Source of the DNA: Candidatus Lokiarchaeum ossiferum
Lineage (GTDB): Archaea; Asgardarchaeota; Lokiarchaeia; Sigyniarchaeales; Promethearchaeaceae
Direction: 5' to 3'
NCBI GenBank assembly: GCA_025839675.1
Contig: CP104013.1
Span: forward strand, 1,500,001 to 1,532,000
Length of the DNA stretch: 32,000 nt
Shown: piece after piece, positions 6,094-28,424 of the stretch
Layout of the letters: each line of letters starts with the position of its first letter
Numbering within the stretch: the first letter of the stretch is position 1
Position numbers and translations under genes: made by a program
The notes under the pieces: model-generated
Databases searched by the model: none
Told to the model about the DNA's origin: nothing
What the model saw: the letters and a program-made list of their open reading frames with translations, nothing else

Positions 6094-6197
6094 AACAGAT
6101 TTTAACCCAAACGATTTGATTTTGTGATTTTTTTTCATAATTTTCCATCAACCGAATGATATTTATTCAAAGCGATTTAATTTTAGTATGATAAAAA

Positions 6198-7925
6198 ATG
6201 GGATACAAATTTCGATCTACCCTAACAATTGGATTGTTGTATGGGATGCTATTTGTTTTAATACTTGCAGTAGATTTTTTTCTCCCAGATGATATTTATA
6301 TCTTTTCCCCACTTATGATTGCTATCTTAAGTTGTATAGGAATCTTCTTTCAATACTTGATATCTCCTTTAATTATAGGATGGATATATCGCATTGAGTG
6401 GGTAGATTATAATCGACTGGAACAAAATGATCCCCATATCGCCCAATTAATCCAAAATGTTTGTCAAAAGTATAATTTCAAATTGCCTAAATTTGGTGTT
6501 ATTCATGGGGGAACACCCAATGCATTTACATATGGATGGACTCGCAATTCAGCCCGTTTAGTAATTACGGATGGCATTTTAGAGTTATTAAATGCAGAAG
6601 AGCAACGAGCAGTCGTAGCTCATGAACTAGGGCATATTGAACACAATGATTTTATTGTAATGACATTTGTTAGTGCCATTCCGGTAATGTTTTACACCAT
6701 TTTTCGATTGTTGACTAATTCCTATCGATATAGACGATTTACCAGTGTTAAACCATCTAGAGGATCATCTGATGACAACAAGTATGCGCAATATATTCTG
6801 CTTATTAAAATCGGATTAGCCATAGTCAGTTATATCATGTATATCGTAGGATATTTTCTGTCATTATTCATAAGTCGATTACGAGAATATTATGCCGATG
6901 AATTTTCAGGAAAAGAAACAGCGGATCCCAATTCCTTAGCGACCGCTTTGGTCAAAATAGCCTATGGAATTTTGCAAGAACCGGAAAAAGGACAAAAAAC
7001 ATTTAATGACAAAAATCAATATGTGAAAGCCCTTGGAATTTTTGACAAAAATTCTGCGAAAAATTTAGCCTATTCCGCCACAAATGGTAGCGGAAAGATA
7101 GATAATACCCTACTTGCACGCGCCTGTGCTTGGGATTTATATCAACCATGGGCAAAGTTTGCTGAAATCACTTCAACCCACCCACTTCCTGCAAAACGAA
7201 TAAAACAATTGAGCTATATGAGTTTTAAAGAATTTAAAAAGCCGCCAAAGGTAGATCTTTCTCAGGCAAAGGTTGAATTTGAAAAACAAATGGGAAAATC
7301 TGCATTGGATGAATTTTTCGGTGAATTATTAATTTACATCATGCCTAAATTGATCTTCTGGACATGGTTAATCGTAGGAGGTATCTTATTCATAGCCAAT
7401 TTTGATATCACAACCTTTTCCCCCCTCTTTAATGGATATTGGTCTTTTATGGTCTTTAGTTTGGTGTTAGCAGGAATTTTCCAACTAATTCAGAATGCAT
7501 TTAAATATAAAAGTGGTTTTAAAGAACATAAAATTGTTGATTTAATTGGAACAATTAAAGTGAGCCCAATTCGACCTGTTCCAACAATTACAAAAGGTTT
7601 TGTTATAGGAAGGGGAGTACCAGGACTTTTTTGGTCGGAGGATGTTGTAGTAAGGGATGAAAAAGGAATCATGTTCATTGATTATGATTTTGGAATAGGG
7701 TTTATCAACACATTGTTTGGAATCTTCAAAGCGGAAAAATTAAAAGGGAAAGATGTGGAAATTACCGGATGGTATCGCAGAAATCCAAGTCCTTATATCC
7801 AAGTTCATAAAATTAAACTATTGGATGGGTCAGGAAAATCCTTTGGAAATTATAAGCGAGCATTTTGGCAATTTGTGGGGATATTCCTTATCGCTTTAGG
7901 TGGAATTCTCTGGTTTTTACTATAA
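6198..7925 (+). CDS. htpX: M48-family zinc metalloprotease (HtpX-like) with a C-terminal extension of about 220 aa containing extra TM segments and a beta-rich domain
   Basis: 575 aa. It has N-terminal TM segments, the HExxH motif in VAHELGHIEHND, the third ligand region SRLREYYADEFSG and the STHPLPAKRIKQL motif, all as in HtpX. After about aa 350 there are four further hydrophobic segments in two groups (about aa 376-399 and 411-433, then one at the extreme C-terminus), with a Gly/Val/Ile-rich soluble region (KVSPIRPVPTITKGFVIGRGVPGLFWSEDVVVRDEKGIMFIDYDFG...) between the last two. Confidence 0.9.
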   Translation: MGYKFRSTLTIGLLYGMLFVLILAVDFFLPDDIYIFSPLMIAILSCIGIFFQYLISPLIIGWIYRIEWVDYNRLEQNDPHIAQLIQNVCQKYNFKLPKFGVIHGGTPNAFTYGWTRNSARLVITDGILELLNAEEQRAVVAHELGHIEHNDFIVMTFVSAIPVMFYTIFRLLTNSYRYRRFTSVKPSRGSSDDNKYAQYILLIKIGLAIVSYIMYIVGYFLSLFISRLREYYADEFSGKETADPNSLATALVKIAYGILQEPEKGQKTFNDKNQYVKALGIFDKNSAKNLAYSATNGSGKIDNTLLARACAWDLYQPWAKFAEITSTHPLPAKRIKQLSYMSFKEFKKPPKVDLSQAKVEFEKQMGKSALDEFFGELLIYIMPKLIFWTWLIVGGILFIANFDITTFSPLFNGYWSFMVFSLVLAGIFQLIQNAFKYKSGFKEHKIVDLIGTIKVSPIRPVPTITKGFVIGRGVPGLFWSEDVVVRDEKGIMFIDYDFGIGFINTLFGIFKAEKLKGKDVEITGWYRRNPSPYIQVHKIKLLDGSGKSFGNYKRAFWQFVGIFLIALGGILWFLL

Positions 7926-7963
7926 AAGAAACTGTTCTTTTATTTAAAAAATCAATAGTATTT

Positions 7964-8224
7964 TTACTCATTTTTTTTAAATTTTGTTTGATTTTTATCA
8001 CATGAATAGATTCCGTTCTTGCATCCCCGCAATAATAAGCTTTTTGTCTTATGGATGTATTTGATTTCTCCATTTTTGGACAATTCGGATGGAACACACA
8101 TCTCTGATCCAAAATTATCTAAAATAGCAGAAAAGATTTCATCCGTATTTTTCCAATCTGTTAAAAATTTGTAGAGAAATCCTTCAATAAGTTGATTTGA
8201 TAAAGGATAGTTTTTCTTTGACAT
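7964..8224 (-). CDS. Hypothetical small protein (86 aa); gene model uncertain because a second same-strand ORF overlaps it in another frame
   Basis: ATG-initiated ORF in the only non-coding gap between htpX and the first permease gene. ORF 7888-8112 (-) overlaps it in a different frame and has a Cys-rich stretch (CVFHPNCPKMEK...YYCGD). I recognise no family. Confidence 0.35.
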   Translation of the reverse strand: MSKKNYPLSNQLIEGFLYKFLTDWKNTDEIFSAILDNFGSEMCVPSELSKNGEIKYIHKTKSLLLRGCKNGIYSCDKNQTKFKKNE

Positions 8225-8406
8225 AATGTGAATTAATAGTATTCTTGTAATTTAAACGATTTTATCTTTGCAACAGCGGGAAATGATACAAAATTGTTGC
8301 TATAAATTTCAATTTAATCTAGTCATATTTTTTATGAACAAATTTCACTTGGTCTCCATGAAATTTAAAATGAAAGTAGGAGATTTATCCCCGTAGGGTT
8401 AAAAAA

Positions 8407-11400
8407 ATGCGAAAAATTGATTTTTATTGGAAAAAATCGTGGTCTGACCAAAAAAAAAATTTAGCAATTATCATCTGTGTTAGTTTTGCCTTAGCGATGA
8501 TATCGGGCTTTTCATTTTTCTATGAATCGGTTCAAAACTATAATTTCGAAAAATCTTTTACTCAGTCAAGCGATTTTTCAATTTATCATGCACCTCAACA
8601 AAATGCTGACGGGCAGTTTATTTCCCCATTGAATTTTGCTGAATATTCAAACATTACAAAACCAGGGGTAGAAAAAGCATTTTCCTCTACAGATCTGGAT
8701 GTCACAGGATATTATAATTTTGCATCCATAACTCATGGTGAAGCTTTTTTTTCAGTAAAAAATATCAGTCGATTTACCTCAAAAGGATATAACTCTGGAT
8801 TTAATTTCTTAAGTGATACAAATGCTACCGGATTCCAATACATTTTAGCAGAAGATGATTTCTACAAATCTGAACGATTTAACGATTATTTCATCATAAT
8901 CGAAGGAGAAAGTCCAAATTCTGACAATGAAATATTAGTTGATTACCAATTTGCAAGAAAATTCGACTTACGAGTAAATGAAATCTCCAATATCACAACG
9001 ATGATAGGGGCTATATGGCCGGGCACACCTTTAAATATCAATTATCAAGAATTTATTATGGAAAATATAACAATTTCGGGCATTTATTTGCCAAAAGATA
9101 ATTTAATTGGATTTAACAACTTGAATTTCAGATATTCCTATACCTATCAAAATTATGTAGATGAGGTAGTTCCATCAGATGACTTCACTTTTGAATCACC
9201 TGGAACATTTTCCTACTACAATTTCTCAGGAACTGATCTAAATCATCCTGTCCAACAACATTTTTCACAGATTGCAGCCGATACCGATGCTTCGAGATAT
9301 TTAAGATCAACAAATATTGTATCTGGCTATTCCTTATTTTTTAATAGAGCGGCAATCAAATTTGAAACGATAAGCCACCAAAAAACCATAATTTCGCAAC
9401 ATGCCTTTGATTTTTCTTTAAATTTACCTTTAGCAGTTGTGTTTAATGATAATCTAGGATTATTTTTACAAGAACAAGCAAATTCATCAAGGTTAGAAAA
9501 ATACTTATTTCAAATTTTTAATCTACCCTTTATAATTTTTGCCGGAATGATTAGTAAAAAACAATTAAACAGATATTATGATAACCAAAAAGAAGAAATT
9601 TTGATTTTACAAGGAAGAGGAATTTCAAAGTCCATTTTGAATACACAGATTAAATATAGTGCATTTCTAAGGAGTTTTATTACCAGTATAATTGGCACAT
9701 CCTTTGGATGTGTTTTCTTTTTTGGATATAAAAAAATCTTGGGAAATGTCCTAATTATTGGACAAAACGCACAAATATTACCCTTTATTACAGTATCCGA
9801 TCTATTCCTCACATTTTTGGTTAGTCTTGCAATAAATTTCGCAGCGACTATTTCAATAATTCAAAAAATAAAAAAACAAGATTTATCTAAAATTGCTGCA
9901 TCCATGAAAATTGAAGATTTATCATCTGATTTTGATGAAAATAAATTGTTTGGAAAAGAGAAAGAAGGAGAAAAACTAAAAAAATTTGCTCAAAACTTAG
10001 AACACGATAAGAACCAGAAGAAATACCATAAAAAAACACAAAAACGAAAGAAAAAACAAAAGAAAAATGAAATTTTTGAAGAAAATGCAGGAGATTTCTT
10101 TAACAATCGAATCAAACCCACATCAATTCTTCAGATCTGCGTGGGTTTGCTACCTTTGATATTGCTATTTATTATATTTTTAGGAAACAATATCAGCCTT
10201 CCAGACAGTTTAATTGATTTAACTTACAATCTTGAGCAATTAATTCCAGGCATAATATTACTTTGTTTCATCTGTTTAGGACAACTCGTTTCTGGAATAG
10301 GAAAAATATTCTTTTTAGAAAGACCAAAAATATTCAGTAAACTCGCTAAAAGAATTTCGAGGGTGTTTTTACAAGATTTGGATATGTTCATATCAACAAA
10401 TTTAGTAAAAAAGAAACAATGGGGAGAAATTGCGAGTTATCTTAGTATTTTTATTGCATTATTAGTTGCAAGCAATATTAACTATTCTTCTACTCAAACC
10501 TACGAATTTTCAATGAACAATTATTTGGTTGGAGCGGATTTGAGATTGGAAATCACAACTCACAATTTTACTTCAATGGAGAATATTCAAGAATTTGAAG
10601 AAAATCTAACGAATTTTCGCGTGAGTAATCGAAAATTGGTTAATGAGGTCGTTTCCTGTTTCACTTCAAGTTCACAAATCCAAACGACAGTGGGAGGAGT
10701 AAATGTATCTGTCAGTTTGCCTATCTATACACTAGATCTTCAAAAATATGAGAAAATTATTACGGAAATGGGTAAACCTGTTCCATATAGCGACTATAAT
10801 AACAAAATATCAGAAATTCAAAATTTTAATACTGAAAATGAAGTTATTGGAGCAATAGTTTCCCCTACAACATTGAGCCGTTTCAATAAAAATATTGGAG
10901 ATCAATTGGAAATCAAAATCCCTATTTATAATAGTTCCACAGATTCTTATTACTATCAGGAATTACAAATAGAATTTATCGAAGTTCTCGATCTGATGCC
11001 CGGTCTATTTTATGATGCAAATGATTTTCACACTAATGAACTGGGAGTCATATTGGACTTGAAATCGATTCCCGTTTCTGATAATGATATAATTGGGAAT
11101 AGCATAATTCAATTGATGGATCTAAAAATCTCTTCAAATAATGACTGGGAATTGATCGAATCAAATCTTATAACAGTTTATGAAAATCAAGCTACTTTTT
11201 TGAATATCTGGACATATAACCAAGATTGGGACGATTTCCAAATAGAAATACATTATTTCGATTTTGGTTCGAGGGGATTTTACAAACTTACGTTTTTGAT
11301 AATTGTTTTGTTAGGAGTATTTATCGGAATTCATTCTGCATTTACAATCCAAAGTGTTTTAGAAGAAGAAAAAACGGAAATCCAGAATTTGTTCAGAGCA

Positions 11401-11910
11401 GGATTTGAAGATAAAAATCTACTAAAGATCGTGATAATTGAAACTTCAATAATGATATTTTTAGCAATACTGGTCGGAGGATTGGTGGGTACGATCTATG
11501 GAACGATACAACATAAACTAACTTTCAATTATGTATTGACAGATCCAGAATTTTTCTATAGTAGCACTGTACACTTTCCAACGAGCATAAATTTATCTTT
11601 ATTAATTGGAGGAATTCTTCCAGTGGTTTGTGCCATTTTCTTGCTTCAACTACTTCTTCTATCAAATAAATGGATTGGAATGAAACGAAAGAATGGGTTG
11701 CAAAACAAAATGAGTGAATTAGCATTAATTAATTGCTTAGCTATAGGTTTAGCCTTACAATTGTTTTTAAAACTTTCAAATGGAATTGCCTTTGGCATGA
11801 TAATCGGAATTATATGGTTTTCAAGTCAGGCGCAAATTCTAAACAAAAAAAATAAAAAAAATCAAAATCAACTTCCAACAAATGTTGTGAAAATAAAGAG
11901 CAAGGCATAA
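8407..11910 (+). CDS. Giant tandem-FtsX/MacB-type (type VII ABC) permease, paralog 1; two (TM - large extracytoplasmic domain - 3 TM FtsX) modules joined by a polybasic linker
   Basis: 1167 aa. It has an N-terminal TM (LAIIICVSFALAMISGFSFF). The MacB periplasmic-domain-like start reads YFIIIEGESPNSDNEILVDYQFARKFDLRVNEISNIT. The FtsX-type segments are ILILQGRGISKSILNTQIKYSAFLRSFITSIIG... and LFRAGFEDKNLLKIVIIETSIMIFLAILVGGLVG. The central linker is ...KKYHKKTQKRKKKQKKNE. Two extra C-terminal TM segments and a K/N-rich tail are absent from paralog 2. Confidence 0.85.
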   Translation: MRKIDFYWKKSWSDQKKNLAIIICVSFALAMISGFSFFYESVQNYNFEKSFTQSSDFSIYHAPQQNADGQFISPLNFAEYSNITKPGVEKAFSSTDLDVTGYYNFASITHGEAFFSVKNISRFTSKGYNSGFNFLSDTNATGFQYILAEDDFYKSERFNDYFIIIEGESPNSDNEILVDYQFARKFDLRVNEISNITTMIGAIWPGTPLNINYQEFIMENITISGIYLPKDNLIGFNNLNFRYSYTYQNYVDEVVPSDDFTFESPGTFSYYNFSGTDLNHPVQQHFSQIAADTDASRYLRSTNIVSGYSLFFNRAAIKFETISHQKTIISQHAFDFSLNLPLAVVFNDNLGLFLQEQANSSRLEKYLFQIFNLPFIIFAGMISKKQLNRYYDNQKEEILILQGRGISKSILNTQIKYSAFLRSFITSIIGTSFGCVFFFGYKKILGNVLIIGQNAQILPFITVSDLFLTFLVSLAINFAATISIIQKIKKQDLSKIAASMKIEDLSSDFDENKLFGKEKEGEKLKKFAQNLEHDKNQKKYHKKTQKRKKKQKKNEIFEENAGDFFNNRIKPTSILQICVGLLPLILLFIIFLGNNISLPDSLIDLTYNLEQLIPGIILLCFICLGQLVSGIGKIFFLERPKIFSKLAKRISRVFLQDLDMFISTNLVKKKQWGEIASYLSIFIALLVASNINYSSTQTYEFSMNNYLVGADLRLEITTHNFTSMENIQEFEENLTNFRVSNRKLVNEVVSCFTSSSQIQTTVGGVNVSVSLPIYTLDLQKYEKIITEMGKPVPYSDYNNKISEIQNFNTENEVIGAIVSPTTLSRFNKNIGDQLEIKIPIYNSSTDSYYYQELQIEFIEVLDLMPGLFYDANDFHTNELGVILDLKSIPVSDNDIIGNSIIQLMDLKISSNNDWELIESNLITVYENQATFLNIWTYNQDWDDFQIEIHYFDFGSRGFYKLTFLIIVLLGVFIGIHSAFTIQSVLEEEKTEIQNLFRAGFEDKNLLKIVIIETSIMIFLAILVGGLVGTIYGTIQHKLTFNYVLTDPEFFYSSTVHFPTSINLSLLIGGILPVVCAIFLLQLLLLSNKWIGMKRKNGLQNKMSELALINCLAIGLALQLFLKLSNGIAFGMIIGIIWFSSQAQILNKKNKKNQNQLPTNVVKIKSKA

Positions 11911-11926
11911 TTTTTTAAATTTTTTT
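11911..11926 (+). terminator. Oligo-T tracts (T6, T7) immediately after the permease-1 stop; candidate archaeal-type terminator
   Basis: The sequence is TAA(11908-11910)-TTTTTTaaaTTTTTTT. Oligo-T termination is established for archaeal RNA polymerase. T runs are common in this AT-rich DNA, so support is weak. Confidence 0.3.
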
Positions 11927-12108
11927 ATCTAATTTCTTTGTAAAAATTTAAAGTTGTTTTTCTAAAAAGGGAATTAGTTTCATTATTTTCATATTTTGAA
12001 TATGAATTCTAAACAATAATTAAGTGAAAAAAAATTCCAAAGATTTAATAATTCTCTCGAGAAAAATAAATTAAGTATTAATGTTAAAATTTCATTTTTT
12101 TGAAATAG

Positions 12109-15100
12109 ATGAATATTTTAATTTATAAATTAAATCAGGTGAAAATTACAATTCCAAAATATTTTGGTTTTTACTTCAAACACAGTTTATCAAAATTAAA
12201 AAATGAATGGCTCGTTATCATTTGCATTAGCCTCTCTTTATCAATGGTCACGGGATTAAGTTATTTCTTTAAAGCCGCTCAAAAGCATCAATTTGAGAAT
12301 TCATTTTTTACAATGACAGATTTTGAGGTTACTTATTATCCAAAATTTGACAATGGCGGATTAATTCCAAAAATGGATTACTATCAATATTTTCATGACT
12401 CAGAAACCAAAATAAAAAATTCAATTAACAATAGTCCATTAGATTTAAATGGCACATATAAATTCGGACTTTTTGGATGGGGAGCAGGATATGTCGTTCC
12501 ACAATATTGGGATTATCTAAAATTGGAAGACACTTCTGGTATTTTGGATTATGTTAATAAAATAAATGGTTCCAATGTTCAATTTGCATTATTTGAGCAG
12601 GATTTTTATCACTCCCAGCGATTTAATGATTATTTTAAAATTATTGCAGGAACTACCCCTGAAGCTGAAAACGAAGTATTAATGGATTACAATTACGCGA
12701 AGAAATTCAATTTGAACGTGGGAGATATTACAAATATAACAGTCTTAGTTGGAAGAACTCATGATTTGAATCCACCGGTAGGACACTTAATACCTTTTCA
12801 ATCGCCTCCAGTAAAACTGGTAGGAACTTACTTACCGATTAAAGAAGATTACCGAATTAGCCTCCAACGTCTCAAATATAGTTACACTTATTTTGATTAT
12901 CTCGCAAATCGAAGTTTTCCGGAATTTATTGATGAAGTGGACACTCCTGCGATTTTTTCGGCTAAAAATTTTTCAATACCCGGATTTTCACATCCATTCC
13001 AATTATTATATCAAAATATTAATGCGACTGATTTCTACAGAAATTACCTCGTGAATGATAACTTACGATGCGGATACATAATAGCTTATAATAGAGATCA
13101 TATTCAGTTCAATACATTAAATAAGGATAAAACAATAATTGCCCAACAAGCGTGGAACACATCACTTAGTATGCCTTTTGAAGTAAATTTTGTTGATTAT
13201 TTAGCTTTACAATTGAACAGAGTCTATTTAGATTTGATGGAAAGCCATCTCATTATCCAAGTTTTGAATATTCCAATAATCCTTTTTTCAATTCTTATCA
13301 CCCAAAACTTTGTGGCGTCGAATAAAAAGCAAATTAATGAAGAACTATTACTTCTCCGACTTCGGAGTGTTCCATTAAAGACAATAAAATGGCAAATAGT
13401 GATCAGTGCGTTTATTAAGGGACTAATATGTATGATATTAGGTTTACTTGGGGGATTTATTACGTTTTTTGCTTATGAAAATTTCATTGGAATGATTTTT
13501 TTTGATACTGAGAAAGTATTGCTAACCCCTTATTTTGAATGGAATAATGTACTTTCGTCTTTCATTCTTGGAACAATAATGAATGGAATTGCAATTATTC
13601 CGAAATTAATTCAGGCACGAAAACCGAAATATGCTGACATTGCTGCATCTCTATCTCAAGATGATTTAGCTGCTAAGTATGATGAGAGATTATTTTTGGG
13701 AAAAAAAGAAAGAGAATTAACAGAAAAAAATGAATATGACAGTGATAGTAAAAAATTTTTTAAGCGCTATAACATAAAGAAAAAAACTACCAAGAAGAAG
13801 GTCGTTTATTCCGATTTTTATGAAGACGAGAAAAAAAAACGACAATTCTTACCCTATTTACTGATGGGAGTTGGAATAATACCAATAATTTTGAACATAC
13901 TTATAGTTATTAGGTATTCTACAACAGCTTCAGATAGTTTAGTGGATTTAGTTAATATAATGACCTATTCTCTTCAAGCCTTTCAATTTCTTACATTGTT
14001 TGGGATGGCATTTTTTGTTGCTGGATTAGTGAGATTGGTTGTTATTCAAAGACCTTCTCTATTTGCTCGGATATCAAAGCAAATTTCCAAATTATTTGTA
14101 AAGAGGTACGATCACATAGTTGGATTAGAATTAGTGCGACAAAAAAAATGGTCTGGGATTATTACCTATCTGGCAATATTTGCCTCGCTCCTTATAACAA
14201 CAAATATTACATTCAATTCCCAATTTCGTTATGAAACTTTGGAAAGAAACATGTATATTGGCTCCGATTTTCGAGTTGAAATGCAAAATCCATCGTTTGC
14301 ATCATTAGATCAAATTAATTCATTTGAACAACAAATTCTAAATTATTCAGATGCAGACGCAAATCCATATTTTAAGGATTTAACAACATGTTTTGTAGAT
14401 ATTAATTGCACAAGTTATAATTATTTTAACGATCGGATGATAGAAAATTCATTTAACGCTTATATTTTGAATTCAACCGATTATTTAAATATTTTAGAAA
14501 AAAATGAGAAACCTCTTCCCTATCCCGAATTCAAAAATGATATTAAGGAATTGTATTCAGAAAATATGATGTCAAGCAATTCTTCGCTTCCAGCGTTTGT
14601 TTCAAGCCGATTTCTTATTGATTCCAATTCAATTATTGGAGATAAGGTAGAAATTCATCACAAATATTCCAATAACAATACAACAGACTTACAAACTCAA
14701 ATACTACATATCGAGATTATTGGGGTTTTAGATTTTGTGCCAGGATTGTACAATAACTCGGATTTTATTGAGAGTTCAATATTATTGGACATAGGAAATC
14801 TGAATCAATCGGAAAATTTAGTTCATGGGAAAAAAATAATTCAAATACTGTCATTTAATAGCAATTTTGATGTTGGATCAGAGACAGAATATGATAATCT
14901 CCGCATGAAGTATTCCGCTTTTTGTTCGAATATAAGATACGATATATCAGACCCCGATTGGGATGACACATCAAAAGCTATTTTATCTATTCAATACGGT
15001 ACAAGTGGATTTTTTGGATTGGAATATTTAAATTTCACACTTATTGGATTTTTGTTAGTCATAGAATTATCTCTAACAATTATCTTAATAAATCGAGAAA

Positions 15101-15447
15101 ACTCACATTTCAATGGTCTTCTGCTTGCGAGGGGAATAGGCAGAAAAAAAATTTTTCAAATGGAATTAACAGAAACATTTATTGTATTTTTAATTGCATT
15201 TTTAATTGGTTCCATTATCGGAATAGGTTTTAGTTGGATTTTAATCAAGGTTGGACAAATAATTATTCAAAATATAATGGGCAGCACATTTTCCTCTAGT
15301 ACAAATCTTCCTATATTTTGTGATATTGGAAATCTTCTTTCTATTTTCAGTTTACTCATTGTATCATCAATTGCAATCCTTGTTATAAATTATCTCGTGT
15401 CTAAAACAGAAACAATTGAGCAAACAATGGAGAAAGAAATGATCTAA
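12109..15447 (+). CDS. Giant tandem-FtsX/MacB-type permease, paralog 2
   Basis: 1112 aa and alignable with the upstream gene over its whole length. Examples, paralog 2 versus paralog 1: LVIICISLSLSMVTGLSYFFKAAQKHQFENSF versus LAIIICVSFALAMISGFSFFYESVQNYNFEKSF; YFKIIAGTTPEAENEVLMDYNYAKKFNLNVGDITNIT versus YFIIIEGESPNSDNEILVDYQFARKFDLRVNEISNIT; LLARGIGRKKIFQMELTETFIVFLIAFLIGSIIG (FtsX-type). A polybasic linker is also present. Confidence 0.85.
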   Translation: MNILIYKLNQVKITIPKYFGFYFKHSLSKLKNEWLVIICISLSLSMVTGLSYFFKAAQKHQFENSFFTMTDFEVTYYPKFDNGGLIPKMDYYQYFHDSETKIKNSINNSPLDLNGTYKFGLFGWGAGYVVPQYWDYLKLEDTSGILDYVNKINGSNVQFALFEQDFYHSQRFNDYFKIIAGTTPEAENEVLMDYNYAKKFNLNVGDITNITVLVGRTHDLNPPVGHLIPFQSPPVKLVGTYLPIKEDYRISLQRLKYSYTYFDYLANRSFPEFIDEVDTPAIFSAKNFSIPGFSHPFQLLYQNINATDFYRNYLVNDNLRCGYIIAYNRDHIQFNTLNKDKTIIAQQAWNTSLSMPFEVNFVDYLALQLNRVYLDLMESHLIIQVLNIPIILFSILITQNFVASNKKQINEELLLLRLRSVPLKTIKWQIVISAFIKGLICMILGLLGGFITFFAYENFIGMIFFDTEKVLLTPYFEWNNVLSSFILGTIMNGIAIIPKLIQARKPKYADIAASLSQDDLAAKYDERLFLGKKERELTEKNEYDSDSKKFFKRYNIKKKTTKKKVVYSDFYEDEKKKRQFLPYLLMGVGIIPIILNILIVIRYSTTASDSLVDLVNIMTYSLQAFQFLTLFGMAFFVAGLVRLVVIQRPSLFARISKQISKLFVKRYDHIVGLELVRQKKWSGIITYLAIFASLLITTNITFNSQFRYETLERNMYIGSDFRVEMQNPSFASLDQINSFEQQILNYSDADANPYFKDLTTCFVDINCTSYNYFNDRMIENSFNAYILNSTDYLNILEKNEKPLPYPEFKNDIKELYSENMMSSNSSLPAFVSSRFLIDSNSIIGDKVEIHHKYSNNNTTDLQTQILHIEIIGVLDFVPGLYNNSDFIESSILLDIGNLNQSENLVHGKKIIQILSFNSNFDVGSETEYDNLRMKYSAFCSNIRYDISDPDWDDTSKAILSIQYGTSGFFGLEYLNFTLIGFLLVIELSLTIILINRENSHFNGLLLARGIGRKKIFQMELTETFIVFLIAFLIGSIIGIGFSWILIKVGQIIIQNIMGSTFSSSTNLPIFCDIGNLLSIFSLLIVSSIAILVINYLVSKTETIEQTMEKEMI

Positions 15448-15456: not shown

Positions 15457-15671
15457 AATTATATTTTCATCTCAATATGTATTTTTACCATTCGAATGAG
15501 TATTCAACCCGATAAATCCCATAATGCAACATAGATACCTACCAGGAAAATTTTTCATTCAGAAATGATTTTAGATTAAATTTGGATAGCAAATATGCCC
15601 TAAAGCAAAAAAAGGGTATGAAAAATAAAAGAATTAGAGAAAAAAGCAAGGTTTCCGCATCAAAATTTTCC

Positions 15672-18600
15672 TTAAATTGTCTTACCACAAAAGAAACAGA
15701 ATTTTTCTTCATTCGTTGGTTGTTTTGCCCCACAACTTTCACATCGATCGATATTTGTTCTTTTAACTGGTCGGTTGATTTGTTGTGAATAACGTTGAAG
15801 TTGTTGGCGAACCAATGAAGAACGAGCTTGATTATTCAAATTTTGTTTAACAACGGGCGGTTTATGGATACGAGCTCTTTTCCTTTTAATAATTTTTCGT
15901 TTATATTCCCGTTTTTCTTTCATTGTTTTAAATTCAGGTAAAATTTCTGCTTCATCTTCTTCAACTGCAGGAACCATGAAAGTAATAGATGTAGCCGTAT
16001 TAAGAGAATCGCCAGTAATTTCTTCGGAAATATCATCTGCTTTTACAAACGTCGTTTTAACTTCAGTTAATTTCTGTTTTTCTTTCTTTTTCTTTTGATT
16101 CTTATCTTTTTCAGTGGGATCAAATTGAAGATGACAGAGCTTAATTAAATCATCTATTTCTTCAACAGTATCTCCGATTTCCAGATAAATAGCTTTTTCT
16201 TTGCACTCTAATAACTCATCATAAATGGATTCTGCTTGTTTTTCTTCAATTATTTCAACGATTTTTGAGATTGAGCTTTTTAATGTTGAAATTTCTGTAT
16301 CAATTTGATTTTGGATTTGTGAACCGGTGGCAGCAATATAATCTCTCATTGGATTAATTATGATCCCTTTGTATTGAGAAATTGCAGTTTGCAACCCATC
16401 CATCATATTTCTCGCTTCAATTACTTTATCTATTTCAATAAACCCTTTCGCTTCTTCTACACTTTCTAACAATTGTTGATGATTTGTGGTTAATTCAATA
16501 TATTTATTAATTTCAGGAATTATTGATTTTACAACAAGTCCTTTGGCTGTTTCAAGCAATTGTTCTAACGAATTACGAGCATCATTAAAATGAAGAACGT
16601 TGATCTCTTTTTTAATAATTGTTTCAAGAGAGTCATTCATTCGACCTTCGCGTTCGCTATTCCCTTGTTTGACTTTCTTATCAAGAGTTTTCAGTACAAT
16701 TTGAACTTGTTCAAATAATTGTTTATCATCTGCGGAAACATTCATAATTTCTTGAATAGATTTTAATGTTTGAGGAAATTCCGTGATTGAATCATAATTA
16801 CGCTCCAATTTTTTACACTTGCTTACAACGGATAGATTGTGTTGACATTGGAGGTTCAAGACGTGTAATTCTTGTTTTAAGGTATTTAATCCCAAACGTT
16901 GAGCGCGAATTTCATAGTTACTCAGTAAATCAATAATTTCAGTAAATTCAAGACTTTTTTTCAGTTTGGCTAAAATGGCTTTATAATCGGATTCAAGCTT
17001 CTCAACTCCATCTTGTAATCCAATTTCAATCTGTCCATGTAAATTGGCAACATTTTCTCGTAAAGATGAACTATAAATCTTTGGATTAGTTTTCAAACCA
17101 CTATCAATTTTATCGAGTAATTTTTTACATTGTTTAAAGGCGTCTTTTATATCCCCTTCACTAAAGATAAGCTGAACTTTATGTATTTCGTCCAAACCTT
17201 CAGAGTTCAGTTTAACTTTTTGAGAAAGGCGTTCAATCCGATCCTGGAATTGCTCTAACCCAGTAAAATTATTTCGAGCAATAATTTCTTGCAAAATAGA
17301 TGTAGATTGATCAATATCGATCGATTCATCTAAGAGTGCATTTATTTGATCTACTTTTTCTTGAAACTTCGATTCTTCTTGAACGATTTTTTGTTCTAAA
17401 TCCTTTTCTAACTTCTTGAATTTATCTTCCAAATTGGAATATATTAGAATATCTGATTTTTCAAGCATATTGCTTATTTTTATTTTCCCTTGAAGAATGC
17501 TACCAAATTTTTCATGAGCCAATTGGTCTTCAAACTGGAGGACTTGCTGAAATACATCAAAATTTTGGTTAAACTCTTTCAAAAAATGTTTATGTTGATC
17601 AAGATATGAATGATATTCTTGTTGTGTTGCAATAATATGTTTCTGTTGAAGAAGAGTATTCACCTCTTCAAAATTCAGTTCAGCCATTAGTTTTGTTTTT
17701 ATCGCAACTAATTCTGATCTAAGTATCTCTTCTCCTTCATCCCGACACTTATTAATCTCTAGGCTAAACTTATCCACTCTTTCTTTGATATTATCGAGTA
17801 AGATTTCTGGTTTTACTTTAGATTCGATTTTTTCAATTAATTGGCGCATTGATTTTTGAGAACTTAAATAATCAGCAGTTTGGAATATTGCTTCAATATC
17901 TAGTAACCTATTGTATAATTCCATATTTATATTACATACATTTTGCTCAACACGAATTTGTTCTATTAAAACAGACATTGAATACTGTTCATATTTCTCA
18001 ACCAATAATTTCATAAGAGAATCCGATTCAACAAATCTGAAATCAGCCATCAATTCTTGAACATAAAGGAGCTGTATTTTAGTTTCATTATTTAATTCTT
18101 CAATCAATGACTCGACTTGTTCCTTAATAACTCGAAATTTGTCGATGGAATTGAAAAAAATAAAATCTGGAAATTGTTCAAGGATCTTTTCAGCTTCTTG
18201 AATCTTTTTCCAAGCGGCAGGAAGATCTTTCCATTTTTTTGCAGCCGCACATAATCGTTTAAACTTGAAGTTTTGATTTTGAATATTTAGCAATTCTTTG
18301 GTATTTCCAATCCAAATTGAAATTTTTTTACTAACATTGAGTTCAGGGAGTTTAATTTGTTTTTCTTGAATATATTCTTCAAACTGGGATTTTATAGCAA
18401 CCATCTTCTCAAGAATCTCTGGATGAATAAGAAAATGTTTGTTTGAGAGTGCTTGCTTGATCTTTAATTTATTTAGTTGGTGATCAATTGTGAAAAATTT
18501 TCGTTCAAGATCAGATTCTGAAATATCGTCGGATATTTTTTCTCCAAACCTTCGTAAAGAACGGATAAGAGAAATGTTCTTCTTTATTTTTAATTTTAAT

Positions 18601-19178
18601 AAATAGTACGGATTAAGTAAATAAACCAATCCATTTTGTGAAATTTTCAAATAGAGAGGTTTCAAATTTTCTTTTGCTTCATCAAATTTTTGGGATTTAA
18701 ACAAAGTTTCAAGTTTATCTATGTCATTTTTAATTTCTTGAGACATATGCTTAATTTGGGATGATACTAACCTCATTTCGTTTGTTAATATTGACACCCT
18801 ATCATCTGAATAAACTATGGGGTGTTTATGAATTAACCGTAAATTAGATGTTAACAACAAACGCGATCGAATTAAATCATCGGTTTTTTTTGAATAATTA
18901 AAATTTAAACGATAAATGGAATCGAAATAGGAATATTTGACTTTATCTAAAAATGATATTTTTGGTTCTCCTTCAGAAGAATCATCAAGCTCTGTATCGA
19001 TTGAAGCATTATCTTCCAATGAATCACCTTCAGGAGCAATTTCTTTAACAAGGGATTTAGATTCTTTAGAGAGTGAAAAATTTTCCTTCAGATTTGCACC
19101 ACACATCGAACAAAATGACTGTGGATCTTCCATTTTAATTGGAGTACCGCAAAACTTACATAGATGAGGATCTGTCAT
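15672..19178 (-). CDS. Giant (1168 aa) helical-repeat / coiled-coil-like protein capped by N- and C-terminal zinc ribbons; no recognisable enzymatic motif
   Basis: ATG start. The N-terminal ribbon is C7-KF-C10...C23-SM-C26 (nt 19101-19160), followed by an acidic Ser/Asp/Glu stretch. About 880 aa of heptad-like, K/E/Q/L/I-rich helical sequence with a periodic motif follows. Next come a polybasic block (KNQKKKKEKQK, KEKREYKRKIIKRKRARIHK) and the C-terminal ribbon C1146-ES-C1149...C1161-FF-C1164 (nt 15687-15743). I found no Walker A/B motif, no TM segment and no signal peptide. Confidence 0.85.
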   Translation of the reverse strand: MTDPHLCKFCGTPIKMEDPQSFCSMCGANLKENFSLSKESKSLVKEIAPEGDSLEDNASIDTELDDSSEGEPKISFLDKVKYSYFDSIYRLNFNYSKKTDDLIRSRLLLTSNLRLIHKHPIVYSDDRVSILTNEMRLVSSQIKHMSQEIKNDIDKLETLFKSQKFDEAKENLKPLYLKISQNGLVYLLNPYYLLKLKIKKNISLIRSLRRFGEKISDDISESDLERKFFTIDHQLNKLKIKQALSNKHFLIHPEILEKMVAIKSQFEEYIQEKQIKLPELNVSKKISIWIGNTKELLNIQNQNFKFKRLCAAAKKWKDLPAAWKKIQEAEKILEQFPDFIFFNSIDKFRVIKEQVESLIEELNNETKIQLLYVQELMADFRFVESDSLMKLLVEKYEQYSMSVLIEQIRVEQNVCNINMELYNRLLDIEAIFQTADYLSSQKSMRQLIEKIESKVKPEILLDNIKERVDKFSLEINKCRDEGEEILRSELVAIKTKLMAELNFEEVNTLLQQKHIIATQQEYHSYLDQHKHFLKEFNQNFDVFQQVLQFEDQLAHEKFGSILQGKIKISNMLEKSDILIYSNLEDKFKKLEKDLEQKIVQEESKFQEKVDQINALLDESIDIDQSTSILQEIIARNNFTGLEQFQDRIERLSQKVKLNSEGLDEIHKVQLIFSEGDIKDAFKQCKKLLDKIDSGLKTNPKIYSSSLRENVANLHGQIEIGLQDGVEKLESDYKAILAKLKKSLEFTEIIDLLSNYEIRAQRLGLNTLKQELHVLNLQCQHNLSVVSKCKKLERNYDSITEFPQTLKSIQEIMNVSADDKQLFEQVQIVLKTLDKKVKQGNSEREGRMNDSLETIIKKEINVLHFNDARNSLEQLLETAKGLVVKSIIPEINKYIELTTNHQQLLESVEEAKGFIEIDKVIEARNMMDGLQTAISQYKGIIINPMRDYIAATGSQIQNQIDTEISTLKSSISKIVEIIEEKQAESIYDELLECKEKAIYLEIGDTVEEIDDLIKLCHLQFDPTEKDKNQKKKKEKQKLTEVKTTFVKADDISEEITGDSLNTATSITFMVPAVEEDEAEILPEFKTMKEKREYKRKIIKRKRARIHKPPVVKQNLNNQARSSLVRQQLQRYSQQINRPVKRTNIDRCESCGAKQPTNEEKFCFFCGKTI
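16128..18125 (-). repeat. Protein-level tandem super-repeat of about 118-123 aa (about 360 nt), at least five copies, inside the giant zinc-ribbon protein
   Basis: Equivalent segments recur at aa 405 (EQIRVEQNVCNINMELYNRLLDIEAIF), 527 (DQHKHFLKEFNQNFDVFQQVLQFEDQL), 645 (QDRIERLSQKVKLNSEGLDEIHKVQLIF), 768 (KQELHVLNLQCQHNLSVVSKCKKLERNY) and 888 (PEINKYIELTTNHQQLLESVEEAKGFI). A second motif is interleaved with them (LNFEEVNTLLQQKHIIATQQEY, LEFTEIIDLLSNYEIRAQRLGL, LHFNDARNSLEQLLETAKGLVV, QAESIYDELLECKEKAIYLEIG). The repeats are degenerate at the DNA level. Confidence 0.5.
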
Positions 19179-22250: not shown

Positions 22251-23780
22251 TCAATTTAAATCGGTCAATATGGTTAATAACTGCCAATTAGAAGTCCAAG
22301 GCTTGGAAAAATCGATTTCCAATATTTTCGCGGTTATTTCTTGAGTGCCATATTGAGAACAAGAAAAAATACTAAAAAGACGATCTTGAAAGTATTCACG
22401 ATGACCATCAAGATAGACTTCATGACCACGCACCACCCGATCAACCTTATTAATTTCACAAAATCGATTGAAAATTTCTTCACCAAAAGTAAATCCCGCA
22501 CCTCTGGGACTCGGCAGGAAATACATCCCAGGGGGTAATTCTGCCGCAGGGTCACTCCATAAAATTTGTTGTGAAAGAATATCCATCTCATCCATATTTG
22601 AATACTTAGAATCAAGTCGATCCAATCCCGCTGTGATATTGGGGATAATGGGTAATTCTTCAAATTCACGATCGTAAAAAGGAATTCCACCATGAACACA
22701 CATAATTTGTTTAGCATCATGTCGAACTACATGGACAAGTGGAAGCTTCATAAAAACATATCCAAAATCGTTAAAGAGGTAAGAATTAGGGAGATATTTA
22801 TTAATATTTTCCCAAAACCCATAATTCATTGAAATGGTAACATCTTCATGATTCCCACGTAAAACTCGAACATATTGGGGGAATTTGAGGGCAAAGGAAA
22901 AAATATAGAGAATGTTATGGATATCATATGGACTCCGATCTACATAGTCTCCATCAAAAACGATTAATATTTCTTCATTAGTCTCTTGAGCCTTCTGAAT
23001 CTGTGTTAAAAAGAATTGAATACACTTATGGGTATCTATAATTGAACCATGGGTATCTCCCACATAATAAACTTTTCCTTGATTTATTGATTCTACAAGA
23101 GGAATTGATAAATCAAGAAATTCATTGCCAAGATACAGATCACTAAACTCTTCTAATAAACCACGAATCATTTCTGGAGCCTTTTCATCACCAACATATA
23201 CATCAGAATCAACTTGTAAATCTGAATTTTGATAAAAATCCCAAAATTTGTTTGCAAAAGGAATTTTTTCATCAGAAATATGAATTTCTTTAAAACCTGA
23301 AATAATCGGCAAAAGAGGTGAGACAATAGGTTCTACAGTTTCTAGAGATTCTTGAGCATCAGTAATTGGATGGGTTGAAATATCGGAACTGATTTCTTGC
23401 CTTAAAGCAGTTAATTTCTTGATATATTCTGCTTCTTCCTGTTGTTGAATAAGTTTGTACTTTGCAAATTTTTCGAATATCTCATCTGTAATCCTCCCAA
23501 TGTCTTCCTTGATTCCATGAGTTTCTAATGGAGTTTGATCTTTCGGGCAGATAAGCATTCCGAGCTGTAAATCGGGAGCGTTATCAAGAGGTTTATCACT
23601 TCGTTTTTCAATCAAATGACTATCATACTGTCTTAAACATGTAGGACACACCACAATCATCCGATCTGCAACAACTAACCCTTCTTTTAAACAATTTCGA
23701 CACAATTTGCTCGCCGCCTCTTTTTCAGAATAATAAAATGCGTGCTTGCAGTGATGACAAATATGTATTTGCTTGGCCAT
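22251..23780 (-). CDS. PPP-family Ser/Thr phosphatase with an N-terminal zinc-ribbon module and a helical linker (paralog of 4258-5397)
   Basis: 509 aa. The ribbon is C8-HH-C11...C27-RN-C30, followed by C45-PT-C48...C78 (nt 23547-23759). The catalytic motifs are YVGDTHGS, DGDYVDRSPY, LRGNHED, CVHGG, ILWSDPA and VRGHE. The antisense and alternate-frame ORFs 22334-22720, 22341-22538 and 22468-22677 are shadows. Confidence 0.9.
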   Translation of the reverse strand: MAKQIHICHHCKHAFYYSEKEAASKLCRNCLKEGLVVADRMIVVCPTCLRQYDSHLIEKRSDKPLDNAPDLQLGMLICPKDQTPLETHGIKEDIGRITDEIFEKFAKYKLIQQQEEAEYIKKLTALRQEISSDISTHPITDAQESLETVEPIVSPLLPIISGFKEIHISDEKIPFANKFWDFYQNSDLQVDSDVYVGDEKAPEMIRGLLEEFSDLYLGNEFLDLSIPLVESINQGKVYYVGDTHGSIIDTHKCIQFFLTQIQKAQETNEEILIVFDGDYVDRSPYDIHNILYIFSFALKFPQYVRVLRGNHEDVTISMNYGFWENINKYLPNSYLFNDFGYVFMKLPLVHVVRHDAKQIMCVHGGIPFYDREFEELPIIPNITAGLDRLDSKYSNMDEMDILSQQILWSDPAAELPPGMYFLPSPRGAGFTFGEEIFNRFCEINKVDRVVRGHEVYLDGHREYFQDRLFSIFSCSQYGTQEITAKILEIDFSKPWTSNWQLLTILTDLN

Positions 23781-26099: not shown

Positions 26100-28424
26100 C
26101 TAAACATTTTTTGATGATTGGATATCATTAAGTATTTTTTCATGTTCTTTACGTAATTCCTCCTCGTTAAAATCCCTAAATTCTTCAATTTGAATCTCTT
26201 TACCACAAAAGTTACAAATTATTACATTAGATTCTGAATCTACACTAGCTCTCACAGAGTAAATAGGTTTTTTGCAATATGAGCAGAAATACTCATTTTT
26301 TGAAGCTTTCTTGTCTTGATTTATGAGGAAAAATCGAGCTCTTCTTAATTCAAGAAGCAATATAGTAATAAAATTAATAATTGCGGGAATTATCATCAGA
26401 TCCCAATTATTGATAGAGGAAATAAAATCTATAGTTTCTAAGACGCTTATATTTGTTAAAAGGGAAAAAAGGGATAAAATAAAACACACAATGAATATTC
26501 TATCATCTAGTTTTTTTTTTTTAAACTTAAGTTGATAGAATTTGCATATGTAATAATAATAGCCAAGTTCCCACAAGATCCATAGGGCTATAAAATTGAA
26601 AATATTATTTCCCGTAAGATCATACAAATATGACTCCACTACGAATTGAATGAAGTTGATATTAACAATAACCCCAAAAAACAATATTCTACCAACAATC
26701 TTAATTAAAAACTTTGTTGAATTAAAAAAAATCAATTTTTGACTATTGCTCTGCAATATAACAGGCTTTTCTAAACTCAAAACAAATTTTATTAAAACCA
26801 ATGAGATAATCATAGCAAAAAAGAAGAGAGTATAGTCAAAATTAGAATAATTATAAGTTAACCAATAAAAAATTCCCATAAATCCAAAAGATATCAATGG
26901 AATCATTAAAATTAATAATCTTATATCAATTTTTAATTTAGATTTTACATTAAAAGCAAGAAGAATAAATATAAGTACCACCGTAAATCGAATAGAGGAC
27001 AATAGGTAGGATCTATAGATTATAACTTCAAAATATAAATAGAAAGTCAAGAAAAAAGAATAAACTGCTGTTTGAATATAATGTTTGATTATATTCCTAA
27101 CATCATTTTCCAATTTCCAATTAAAACCTATTATCTTCAAAAAGATCATACCAACTATAATAAATACACTCACCAATAGGAAAAGAATTGAAGGAATTAT
27201 TAATCCAACTACTATTACCATCAGAATAAATAATGATGGAAAGAGAATAATGATGGAAATCCTATTGCCAAGTTTCTCTTTCAAATCCTTAAAACTTTCT
27301 TTGATACCACATATGAAAGACTTCACCAACGAATTACTTTCAATGAGAATTCCCGGTATAGATAAAGTGCTCTCCATTTTAAAAAGAATATGGAAAATGA
27401 ATATTCCAATCAAGAAACTAAATATATAATCATCCATCCTATGCGAGAAAGTTCCCATAACATCGATTCCAAAAAACCAAGCGATTATGTTACAAAAAAC
27501 TATGAAAAGATAAAAAAAATTTAGTGTCTCCTTTTCATTTAAAATATCATTTCTATTTAAAATATAAATCAATTGAGTTAATGTGAGGAAAATTAGAGAG
27601 AAAAATGCCCCATACCCTCTTAATTCAAAGCTAAAATCAATTGCGTTTATATAAGCGAAGACAAAAATTCCGACCAAGAAAATAGTACGAATTATTAATT
27701 TGGAGTTCATTTTAAGAGATTCGCGAAGAGCAAGGAAATTGAAGAGTCCATAAGAATCTGGAATATTCAGGCAAGATTTATTTAATAAATCATTCACTAC
27801 TTCATTCTTAGTTAATCCATCTTTTAAATCATTATTAGATTTTGGACGATATTTCAAAAATAAAAAACTACAAATGATACTTTCGAATACAAGGAATATA
27901 AATTTATATATTGATGTGATATATAATTGAATAATTCCAATTGCAGAAAATAATATTACCAAAAACCAAAAAAGGAACATTCTAGTTAATTTTGAAAAAA
28001 CCAACTTCTCTTTAATATTGAAATAATGACAAAAAGTTCCGAATTCTAACATGAAAAAAGAAATTAAAAACATACTAGAATAAATCCAATGTGAGAAATT
28101 TGCGATATCTCTACTTATTATGAAGCTCGTAAATAAATTACAATATATTAAGATTATTACGGAGATACTAGAGAAAATATGCTTAGTGTTGAGGAAATAC
28201 GTGATTATTTTTTTTTTTAGAAACTCTTTTTCGCTTATAAAAAATAACGCAAGAGAAATCCATATATACGAAAATATGGATATTATAAAGCCGTTGGATC
28301 TAAAATGTTCCAAGTGGTTCAATTTAAAGAAATAGAGAAAATAAAGGCAAATTGTTGCACATATAATAAAGGAAATGCAAAGTTTCCTTATCAAAGAATT
28401 TGGTGTTTTCAAATCGTTATCCAT
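26100..28424 (-). CDS. Large polytopic membrane protein (about 20 TM segments) with a C-terminal cytoplasmic zinc ribbon; hypothetical
   Basis: 774 aa with an ATG start. I count about 20 hydrophobic segments rich in Phe/Ile/Leu and two hydrophilic loops of about 40-50 aa. The tail is YF-C714-SY-C717-KKPIYSVRASVDSESNVII-C737-NF-C740-GKEI (nt 26205-26285), followed by an acidic/basic helix. The + strand ORFs inside it are shadows. Confidence 0.8.
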   Translation of the reverse strand: MDNDLKTPNSLIRKLCISFIICATICLYFLYFFKLNHLEHFRSNGFIISIFSYIWISLALFFISEKEFLKKKIITYFLNTKHIFSSISVIILIYCNLFTSFIISRDIANFSHWIYSSMFLISFFMLEFGTFCHYFNIKEKLVFSKLTRMFLFWFLVILFSAIGIIQLYITSIYKFIFLVFESIICSFLFLKYRPKSNNDLKDGLTKNEVVNDLLNKSCLNIPDSYGLFNFLALRESLKMNSKLIIRTIFLVGIFVFAYINAIDFSFELRGYGAFFSLIFLTLTQLIYILNRNDILNEKETLNFFYLFIVFCNIIAWFFGIDVMGTFSHRMDDYIFSFLIGIFIFHILFKMESTLSIPGILIESNSLVKSFICGIKESFKDLKEKLGNRISIIILFPSLFILMVIVVGLIIPSILFLLVSVFIIVGMIFLKIIGFNWKLENDVRNIIKHYIQTAVYSFFLTFYLYFEVIIYRSYLLSSIRFTVVLIFILLAFNVKSKLKIDIRLLILMIPLISFGFMGIFYWLTYNYSNFDYTLFFFAMIISLVLIKFVLSLEKPVILQSNSQKLIFFNSTKFLIKIVGRILFFGVIVNINFIQFVVESYLYDLTGNNIFNFIALWILWELGYYYYICKFYQLKFKKKKLDDRIFIVCFILSLFSLLTNISVLETIDFISSINNWDLMIIPAIINFITILLLELRRARFFLINQDKKASKNEYFCSYCKKPIYSVRASVDSESNVIICNFCGKEIQIEEFRDFNEEELRKEHEKILNDIQSSKNV

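Follow-up and report, generated by a model that had tools for sequence, protein, structure and literature searches.

A lineage-restricted family of helical-repeat proteins with a predicted C-terminal zinc ribbon in Lokiarchaeum and related Promethearchaeota

Several described systems join helical bodies to metal-binding modules or build them from repeats. EEA1 is a parallel coiled-coil dimer in which the N-terminus bears a C2H2 finger and the C-terminus a FYVE domain (two-zinc site, R(R/K)HHCR); spectrin consists of ~106-residue repeats of three equal helices with a continuous linker helix, and EzrA has an N-terminal transmembrane helix. SMC and Rad50 proteins carry the Walker A/B halves of an ABC-type ATPase head at their termini, joined by an antiparallel coiled coil with a hinge or a mid-protein CxxC hook, and intermediate-filament-like proteins have a long uninterrupted heptad or hendecad rod. 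TPR and PPR alpha-solenoids are built from units of 34–35 amino acids (aa). The Sulfolobus Arn network combines the zinc-ribbon–FHA protein ArnA with ArnB, the kinases ArnC/D and PP2A. About one in two Asgard archaeal genes lacks an assigned function, and to our knowledge the components that organise Asgard cell architecture are, apart from actin, largely unknown. Here, a gene for a long helical protein is compared with these systems; it lies in a 32,000-nucleotide (nt) stretch of Candidatus Lokiarchaeum ossiferum (contig CP104013.1, positions 1,500,001 to 1,532,000), referred to as the window.

A conserved gene family and its helical units

With an ATG start, the open reading frame (ORF) specifies 1168 aa; its product is the hypothetical protein NEF87_001226 of Candidatus Lokiarchaeum ossiferum, with which it agrees in every residue. 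It represents a real, conserved and previously undescribed gene family under purifying selection. A 76 %-identical orthologue was identified on a syntenic 71-kb metagenomic contig (L001; further loci are labelled L001–L010, L014 and L015). Codon comparison of the pair gave a synonymous divergence (dS) of ~1.0 and a ratio of nonsynonymous to synonymous substitution rates (dN/dS) of 0.13 overall. By region, the ratio was 0.10–0.19 in the repeats, 0.12 in the N-terminal ribbon, 0.47 and 0.37 in the acidic linkers (residues 33–75 and 1037–1080, respectively) and 0.04 in the basic tail with the C-terminal ribbon, the most constrained part.

Of 1.84 billion cluster representatives scanned exhaustively with HMMER, only 25 were family proteins at E ≤ 1e-3, six of them full-length (1040–1267 aa), and more copies were found by DNA-level scans in Promethearchaeum sp., Candidatus Harpocratesius repetitus (L005) and metagenome-assembled genomes of Promethearchaeota. 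Full-length orthologues with only 27–39 % identity keep the invariant motifs. Wherever the source is named, it belongs to the Promethearchaeota; all deposited copies carry the label "hypothetical protein", and the family is restricted, as far as detectable, to Lokiarchaeum, Promethearchaeum, Harpocratesius and related Promethearchaeota. A word-indexed protein search returned the protein itself and one orthologue only, with the single sequence as well as with a 26-sequence profile; with a tail profile it gave no match. That the ORF is spurious or a decaying gene, for which the low G+C content (~30 %) and the two matches of the word-indexed search could be cited, is practically out of the question: the AT-rich artefact that the preliminary description of this DNA had named as a way to be wrong is refuted by the dN/dS of 0.13 at this dS and by the full-length homologues down to 27 % identity with their invariant motifs, and a confident AlphaFold model of residues 340–701 (below) also speaks against it.

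The structure of the full-length protein was predicted with AlphaFold2 by using a 26-sequence alignment (mean predicted local distance difference test (pLDDT) 76.8; predicted TM score (pTM) 0.38). The model contains unbroken helical hairpins at residues 76–1035 and ribbon-like bridges at both ends. Helix lengths of ~37/~17/~32/~17 residues recur every ~120 residues, and a separate prediction of fragment 340–701 (pLDDT 90.8, pTM 0.66) repeats this pattern three times. When units cut from the family alignment were compared by hhalign, U1 and U3–U8 aligned in register (probability up to 96 %, E down to 7e-9) and U2 proved to be a diverged unit. Self-BLAST detected no internal repeats in the protein; they become visible only through the AlphaFold secondary structure and profile–profile comparison. 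A hidden Markov model (HMM) of the unit matched every family member five to seven times and none of the other ORFs of the loci tested (window, L001–L010, L014 and L015). Harpocratesius-type proteins (1256–1272 aa) contain exactly one extra unit of ~119 aa; lineages differ in the copy number of the 120-aa unit in steps of whole units. Sustained heptad or hendecad periodicity was not found in the body, where power was low and inconsistent and helices break every 17–39 residues. Because a sustained heptad signal is absent, the body is no coiled coil but an array of hairpin repeats. The array is preceded by capping helices (residues 76–98 and 102–118) with a motif common to most homologues, SF.DK.K.FY...Y.LN.

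The protein contains 16 cysteines, including the terminal sets C7/C10/C23/C26 and C1146/C1149/C1161/C1164. Both terminal sites follow the pattern CxxCG-x11-FCxxCG, the second at the extreme C-terminus. A Pfam scan gave nothing at gathering score, with zinc-ribbon matches below threshold only: DZR (PF12773) scored 20.1 (cutoff 27.3) and Zn_Ribbon_1 (PF13240) 15.6 (cutoff 25). The N-terminal ribbon matched DZR at E 7e-4 and also Zn_Ribbon_1, both sub-threshold. Among 14 homologous tails, Zn_Ribbon_1 was matched by 12 and DZR by 11, all below gathering score. The C-terminal module is read from its sequence as a Cys4 zinc ribbon of the PF13240/DZR type and is predicted to bind zinc.

Conservation climbs towards the C-terminus. 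Mean pairwise identity is 19 % in U1 and 38 % in U6, the limits of the range for the repeats, and reaches 46–47 % in the tail and C-terminal ribbon. U6 holds the invariant motifs LQDGVEKL and NYxIRAxRLG. In the alignment of tail and C-terminal ribbon (14 sequences), 18 of 88 columns are invariant; C1146, C1149, Q1153, C1161, C1164 and G1165 are among the invariant positions of the ribbon, and its four cysteines are present in 14/14 sequences. The tail carries the motifs EKREYKRK, KPP and ENLNNxxRSSxTRxxLQxYxxQxNRP. The N-terminal ribbon is missing in seven of 13 further loci (L002, L003, L007, L008, L010, L014 and L015), which include the closest non-Lokiarchaeum relative; the ORFs there are maximal, with no ribbon-encoding frame upstream. 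It is kept in P0002, P0007 and L004–L006 (Lokiarchaeum and Harpocratesius lineages), and its four cysteines are conserved wherever the module occurs. What the family conserves is the repeats together with a docking module at the C-terminus, rather than a symmetrical adaptor with two ends, and two-ended tethering cannot be its core function, because the N-terminal ribbon is absent from those seven loci.

The sequence-based preliminary description fares well on composition. Its 1168-aa ORF with a Cys4 ribbon at each terminus is confirmed by the cysteine positions, and its helical repeats by the AlphaFold2 helices and the in-register units. The acidic stretch, the polybasic block with an acidic segment and the K/E/Q/L/I-rich body agree with net charges of −8 (residues 41–80), −8 (1041–1080) and +12 (1081–1120) and with contents of K 11.6, L 11.1, E 10.4, I 9.8 and Q 6.6 %. 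Ahead of the C-terminal ribbon, the charge order is basic–acidic–basic. A pattern check of the 1168-aa sequence found no Walker A motif, and the highest 19-residue Kyte–Doolittle mean (0.85) indicates no transmembrane segment, as had been stated. Conservation of the Cys pairs, proposed as a check, holds for the C-terminal pairs; the N-terminal pairs are facultative. A metal-binding adaptor at each end as the design is not borne out, as only the C-terminal ribbon is invariant, and neither is a coiled-coil-type spacer, given hairpins of 37/17/32/17 residues.

The regions are listed in Table 1. AlphaFold2 gave pLDDT <50 at residues 1028–1080, with strands at 1041–1044 and 1065–1068.

Table 1. Coordinates of the ORF, the regions of its product and further features of the window and of other loci. 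Residues are those of the 1168-aa protein.
Feature	Locus	Coordinates	Strand	Residues	Remarks
Complete ORF	window	15672..19178	-		
Predicted N-terminal Cys4 zinc ribbon	window	19083..19178	-	1–32	facultative in family
Acidic disordered linker	window	18954..19082	-	33–75	net −8; pLDDT <50 at 33–73
Aromatic-rich capping helices	window	18816..18953	-	76–121	pLDDT 85–90
Tandem array of ~8 helical units of 120 aa	window	16071..18815	-		AlphaFold2 helices and profile–profile comparison
Unit U1				122–220	
Unit U2				221–339	divergent
Unit U3				340–459	
Unit U4				460–578	
Unit U5				579–701	
Unit U6				702–820	
Unit U7				821–939	
Unit U8				940–1036	truncated unit
Acidic low-confidence linker	window	15939..16070	-	1037–1080	net −9; two short conserved beta segments
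Conserved polybasic tail	window	15744..15938	-	1081–1145	net +17
Predicted C-terminal Cys4 zinc ribbon and stop codon	window	15672..15743	-	1146–1168	invariant in family
Oligo-T runs 3' of the ORF	window	15540-15671	-		read in minus-strand sense
Long PPP-family Ser/Thr phosphatase	window	22251..23780	-		Pfam Metallophos E 5.7e-22; two N-terminal Cys4 ribbons
Zinc-ribbon Ser/Thr kinase	window	2339-4261	+		Pfam Pkinase E 1.2e-20
Short PPP phosphatase	window	4258-5397	+		Pfam Metallophos E 1.1e-24
Block with membrane protein, M48 and FtsX genes	window	5401-15447	+		
FtsX-type gene convergent with the ORF	window	12109-15447			
Corresponding block in L001	L001	13743-20209			
774-aa polytopic membrane protein	window	26100-28424	-		
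MBL-fold orthologue, truncated ORF	window	up to 909	-		left edge of window
ZIP/ZupT-type permease	L003	9072-9881	+		by eye
ZIP/ZupT-type permease	L007	2904-3710	+		by eye
ZIP/ZupT-type permease	L005	9023-9859	-		by eye
Transposase-like ORF, 565 aa	L005	13856-15553	-		by eye
Recurring genes beyond kinase	L010	16886-20091			
Recurring genes beyond kinase	L014	13475-16656			
Recurring genes beyond kinase	L015	9434-12224			

Shorter paralogues (P0017–P0023; loci L011–L013, outside the window) comprise 370–530 aa and share about three N-terminal repeat units. After these comes a conserved FDPFGD motif, then a winged-helix-like segment, next a K/S-rich linker and finally an acidic helix at the C-terminus (e.g., EKDALDALDDLLDQDL). 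These C-terminal segments look like short linear interaction motifs in their sequence, and the gene neighbourhood of the paralogues is unrelated to that of the long protein. The paralogues support the notion of a common scaffold with exchangeable ends.

Phosphatase and kinase genes at the locus

The recurrent association with phosphatase and kinase genes is the sole functional lead for the protein. A long PPP phosphatase (510–560 aa, N-terminal Cys4 ribbons) is encoded on the same strand upstream of the homologue in 11/11 further loci that reach that far; in L010 and L015 it directly adjoins the homologue, ending 70–115 nt before it. Its motifs GDxHG/GDxVDR/GNHE and CxxC pairs were read in the sequence of the window copy. 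Downstream, a convergent short PPP phosphatase (378–395 aa) followed by a Ser/Thr kinase (560–660 aa, N-terminal ribbons) was found in 10 further loci. The pair adjoins the 3' end of the homologue or lies one to three unrelated genes away (L003–L007, L009, L010, L014 and L015), and it is the convergent partner in the nine loci of other lineages that extend past this 3' end. The layout of long PPP and homologue facing short PPP and kinase recurs wherever the contig reaches far enough; in those loci the identity of the homologue drops to 27–29 %, and the kinase and short phosphatase stay at 52–67 %. In the window, the kinase stop overlaps the phosphatase start by 4 nt, so the two genes probably form an operon.

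Two N-terminal Cys4 ribbons and a highly conserved C-terminal domain of ~170 aa (73 % column identity) are present in the kinase; for this domain neither Pfam nor PDB gave a match. An FHA domain, suspected there from an "LGRDE" motif, was not supported by Pfam or by a PDB profile search. Pfam searches with the paralogues and the neighbouring uncharacterised proteins gave nothing at gathering score.

The co-directional minus-strand array of the window runs FKBP, a 774-aa membrane protein, thioredoxin, DsbD, the long PPP phosphatase, a GH38 alpha-mannosidase and, last, the gene under study, which converges on an FtsX-type gene. The preliminary description had this arrangement right for the window; the FtsX convergence is specific to Lokiarchaeum, its place being taken elsewhere by the phosphatase–kinase pair. 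The responsible block encodes a 230-aa membrane protein, an M48 peptidase and two FtsX giants (1167 and 1112 aa, ~30 % mutually identical) and separates the gene from the pair in Lokiarchaeum only (window and L001). L001 has one FtsX giant instead of two, and other genera have none at this position; in the window and L001, the FtsX, M48 and 230-aa membrane protein genes are inserted between the gene and the pair. GH38 lies between the long phosphatase and the homologue in most lineages and is absent in L010 and L015; thioredoxin and DsbD are missing in L010.

Further observations concern the surroundings. Oligo-T runs (T6, T5 and T7) occur within ~70 nt after the stop codon, in the 224-nt convergent intergenic region, and as sequence would fit an archaeal transcription termination signal. 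The 774-aa polytopic membrane protein has a cytoplasmic CxxC...CxxC ribbon at its C-terminus, belongs to no Pfam family and is absent from the syntenic contig L001. A ZIP/ZupT-type zinc permease gene (HNFPEG/HNIPEG) adjoins the homologue in L003, L007 and L005, between GH38 and the zinc-ribbon protein gene. The window lacks this permease gene; the adjacency may be fortuitous or linked to zinc supply. In L005 (Harpocratesius repetitus) a 565-aa transposase-like ORF lies directly downstream of the homologue and separates it from the phosphatase–kinase pair. Beyond the kinase, genes for an MBL-fold protein (Pfam Anti-Pycsar_Apyc1/Lactamase_B), a ThiS/SAMP-like small protein and a SNAP/TPR-like protein of 570–590 aa recur in L010, L014 and L015; the MBL-fold orthologue of the window is cut off at its left edge.

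Candidate functions

The best reading of the protein is a cytoplasmic non-enzymatic scaffold; the preliminary description, which had proposed such a scaffold with zinc-ribbon modules, is supported in this. A composite model, in which the scaffold is docked by its C-terminus and linked to the flanking phospho-signalling module, is put forward tentatively, its functional part being what we infer from architecture and synteny. The array of units would form a stiff, elongated platform that advances ~5 nm per unit, because the unequal hairpins would be stacked along one axis, and measures ~40 nm in total. Foldseek superposition of the 362-aa fragment on compact TPR proteins gave a root mean square deviation (rmsd) of 20–35 Å, which would fit an elongated shape of the predicted model. 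The basic tail and ribbon would be the business end, through which the scaffold would dock on a conserved and specific partner that is polyanionic; a nucleic acid or an acidic protein surface would be the most plausible one. A defined macromolecular surface is preferred to non-specific lipid binding because N, Q, R, S and T positions of the tail are invariant and its dN/dS is as low as 0.04. Conserved patches in units 6–8 may bind protein partners, with repeat number setting the reach, and the optional N-terminal ribbon may be a second contact in some lineages. The scaffold would probably be a platform for, or a substrate of, a kinase/phosphatase phosphorylation switch, a link drawn from the constant position of the gene between those for a zinc-ribbon PPP and for a convergent pair of PPP and zinc-ribbon kinase. 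The invariant R-[S/N]-S-x-x-R of the tail is a candidate phosphorylation site, and the adjacent acidic linker might act as an autoinhibitor of the tail, giving a phospho- or charge-controlled switch.

Several points weigh against the composite model. Lokiarchaeum, Promethearchaeum and Harpocratesius all belong to one family, Promethearchaeaceae (NCBI taxonomy), and their shared synteny may partly be inherited order. GH38, ZIP permease, FtsX, M48, MBL-fold and membrane protein genes and an insertion sequence insert freely between the gene and its neighbours; co-transcription is impossible for convergent genes. The ribbons common to the protein, the kinase and the phosphatase are weak evidence because zinc ribbons are frequent in the region, the 774-aa membrane protein included. 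The tail has no significant similarity to known nucleic-acid-binding modules, the rod geometry is derived from helix lengths, rmsd and TM values only, and the locus tag NEF87_001226 was not matched in those supplements of L. ossiferum and Asgard papers that were searched as text.

The main rival regards the protein as a generic TPR/PPR-like solenoid or chaperone unrelated to its neighbours, the synteny being inherited gene order within one family; we consider it possible, if rather doubtful. The shared family of the three named genera and the insertions just mentioned favour it, as do the short-helix motif hxFxxAxxxLxxxxxxAxxxGL, which resembles TPR/PPR hairpins, the TPR-type top matches of Foldseek and a summed E of 1.2e-6 of the unit profile on a designer PPR protein. 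Each repeat of the latter, however, scores ≤ 5.6 bits, and the sum is best read as a shared hairpin motif (FxxAxxxL...G) multiplied by identical designed repeats, not as homology. TM values to TPR proteins are 0.05–0.25, the period is 60/120 aa and not 34/35, and the phosphatase and kinase neighbours persist where thioredoxin, DsbD and GH38 do not. A bolder version of the composite model, a Lokiarchaeia-specific stiff rod of ~40 nm made of hitherto undescribed four-helix repeats of 120 residues, with its basic zinc-ribbon end attached to RNA, the nucleoid or the inside of the membrane and this attachment switched by the flanking eukaryote-type kinase and PPP, appears unlikely.

A two-ended tether in the style of EEA1 and golgins, with each zinc module binding a different membrane or partner and the helical body setting the distance, is quite improbable. 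It would account for the ribbon at each end of the window protein with ~960 helical residues between them and for the variable number of spacer units, and the polybasic tail could bind acidic lipids. Against it stand the seven loci, closest non-Lokiarchaeum relative included, that lack the N-terminal ribbon, the plain Cys4 type of the ribbons (PF13240/DZR, not FYVE or C2H2), a body that is not a coiled coil and the strongly constrained, polar tail, which points to a specific partner. A self-assembling cytoskeletal filament (intermediate-filament-like, coiled-coil-rich as in crescentin or FilP, or EzrA/spectrin-like), suggested by the length and the helix- and K/E/L-rich nature of a protein whose host has an elaborate cytoskeleton, is very improbable in view of the absent heptad/hendecad periodicity, helices split into hairpins every 17–37 residues, the poor matches to spectrin repeats (next section) and the lack of an EzrA-like anchor. 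Tether and filament are both less likely than the composite model or the generic solenoid.

Comparison with known proteins and folds

Searches of PDB sequences with the single sequence and with family, unit and tail profiles gave only compositional or generic matches. The best were ApoA-I for the full-length profile (E 0.007, compositional) and the eL37 ribbon for the tail profile (E 0.066). In Foldseek against PDB, the full model reached TM values of 0.05–0.15, and the lowest E with fragment 340–701 was 0.16 (TM 0.14). The sole global structural match was a BFVD model of a 749-aa viral protein, K9ME32 (TM 0.61, rmsd 5.5 Å, 355 columns), with 12 % identity to the fragment and E 0.01, both structures being predicted; a tblastn search of phage genomes gave no homologue. 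The 120-aa repeat unit is without a solved structural counterpart by sequence or fold. The absence of a characterised family, as stated in the preliminary description, is upheld by Pfam and PDB, and no explanatory match was found to the SMC/Rad50, EzrA or intermediate-filament-like families that it had listed for checking. Its likenesses to EEA1, spectrin and EzrA find no support in fold or sequence.

With TPR/PPR alpha-solenoids the protein shares tandem helix hairpins, the local FxxAxxxL...G motif, the non-enzymatic character and a probable role as a protein-binding platform. Its unit, in contrast, has 120 aa in unequal hairpins (37/17 and 32/17), and Pfam gave no TPR or PPR match; the similarity is local to the hairpin motif only. 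SMC and Rad50 gave no Pfam or PDB match, and neither they nor EzrA are among the top 50 Foldseek PDB matches listed. Unlike these ATPases, the protein lacks Walker A, its CxxC pairs are terminal and its helices of 17–39 residues are arranged in hairpins, which equally sets it apart from the uninterrupted rod of intermediate-filament-like proteins. EEA1 and golgins resemble only the window protein, in which a long helical spacer has a predicted zinc module at either end; the ends of this protein are single Cys4 ribbons of ~20–23 residues, the N-terminal one dispensable in the family, and FYVE was matched by Pfam neither in the protein nor in the family.

The Arn network is similar in that it is archaeal and that its genes for non-enzymatic zinc-ribbon proteins neighbour those for eukaryote-type Ser/Thr kinases and PPP phosphatases. 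FHA and vWA domains were not detected in the protein or in the kinase C-terminal domain, and there is no sequence relationship. The family presented here, of large proteins strongly conserved in a lineage with cultured Lokiarchaeum and Promethearchaeum strains and unlike any solved structure, is a concrete candidate for a phospho-regulated structural or organising factor.

Spectrin, plectin and EzrA share with it a tandem all-helical unit of ~110–120 aa, an elongated protein and a copy number that changes by whole units. The unit differs by its four helices of alternating length, and no transmembrane anchor is present; Foldseek matched the plectin spectrin repeats 5j1i at E 2.6 (TM 0.18), and Pfam Spectrin_7 matched one of eight family members below threshold (E 0.005). 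If the protein is only a lineage-specific interaction scaffold, it would still add a helical-repeat fold class and remove the unsupported reading as an "archaeal EEA1/spectrin". If the rod reading is true, it would be a prokaryotic functional analogue of the spectrin and tether linkers of eukaryotes that arose independently in their closest cultured relatives.

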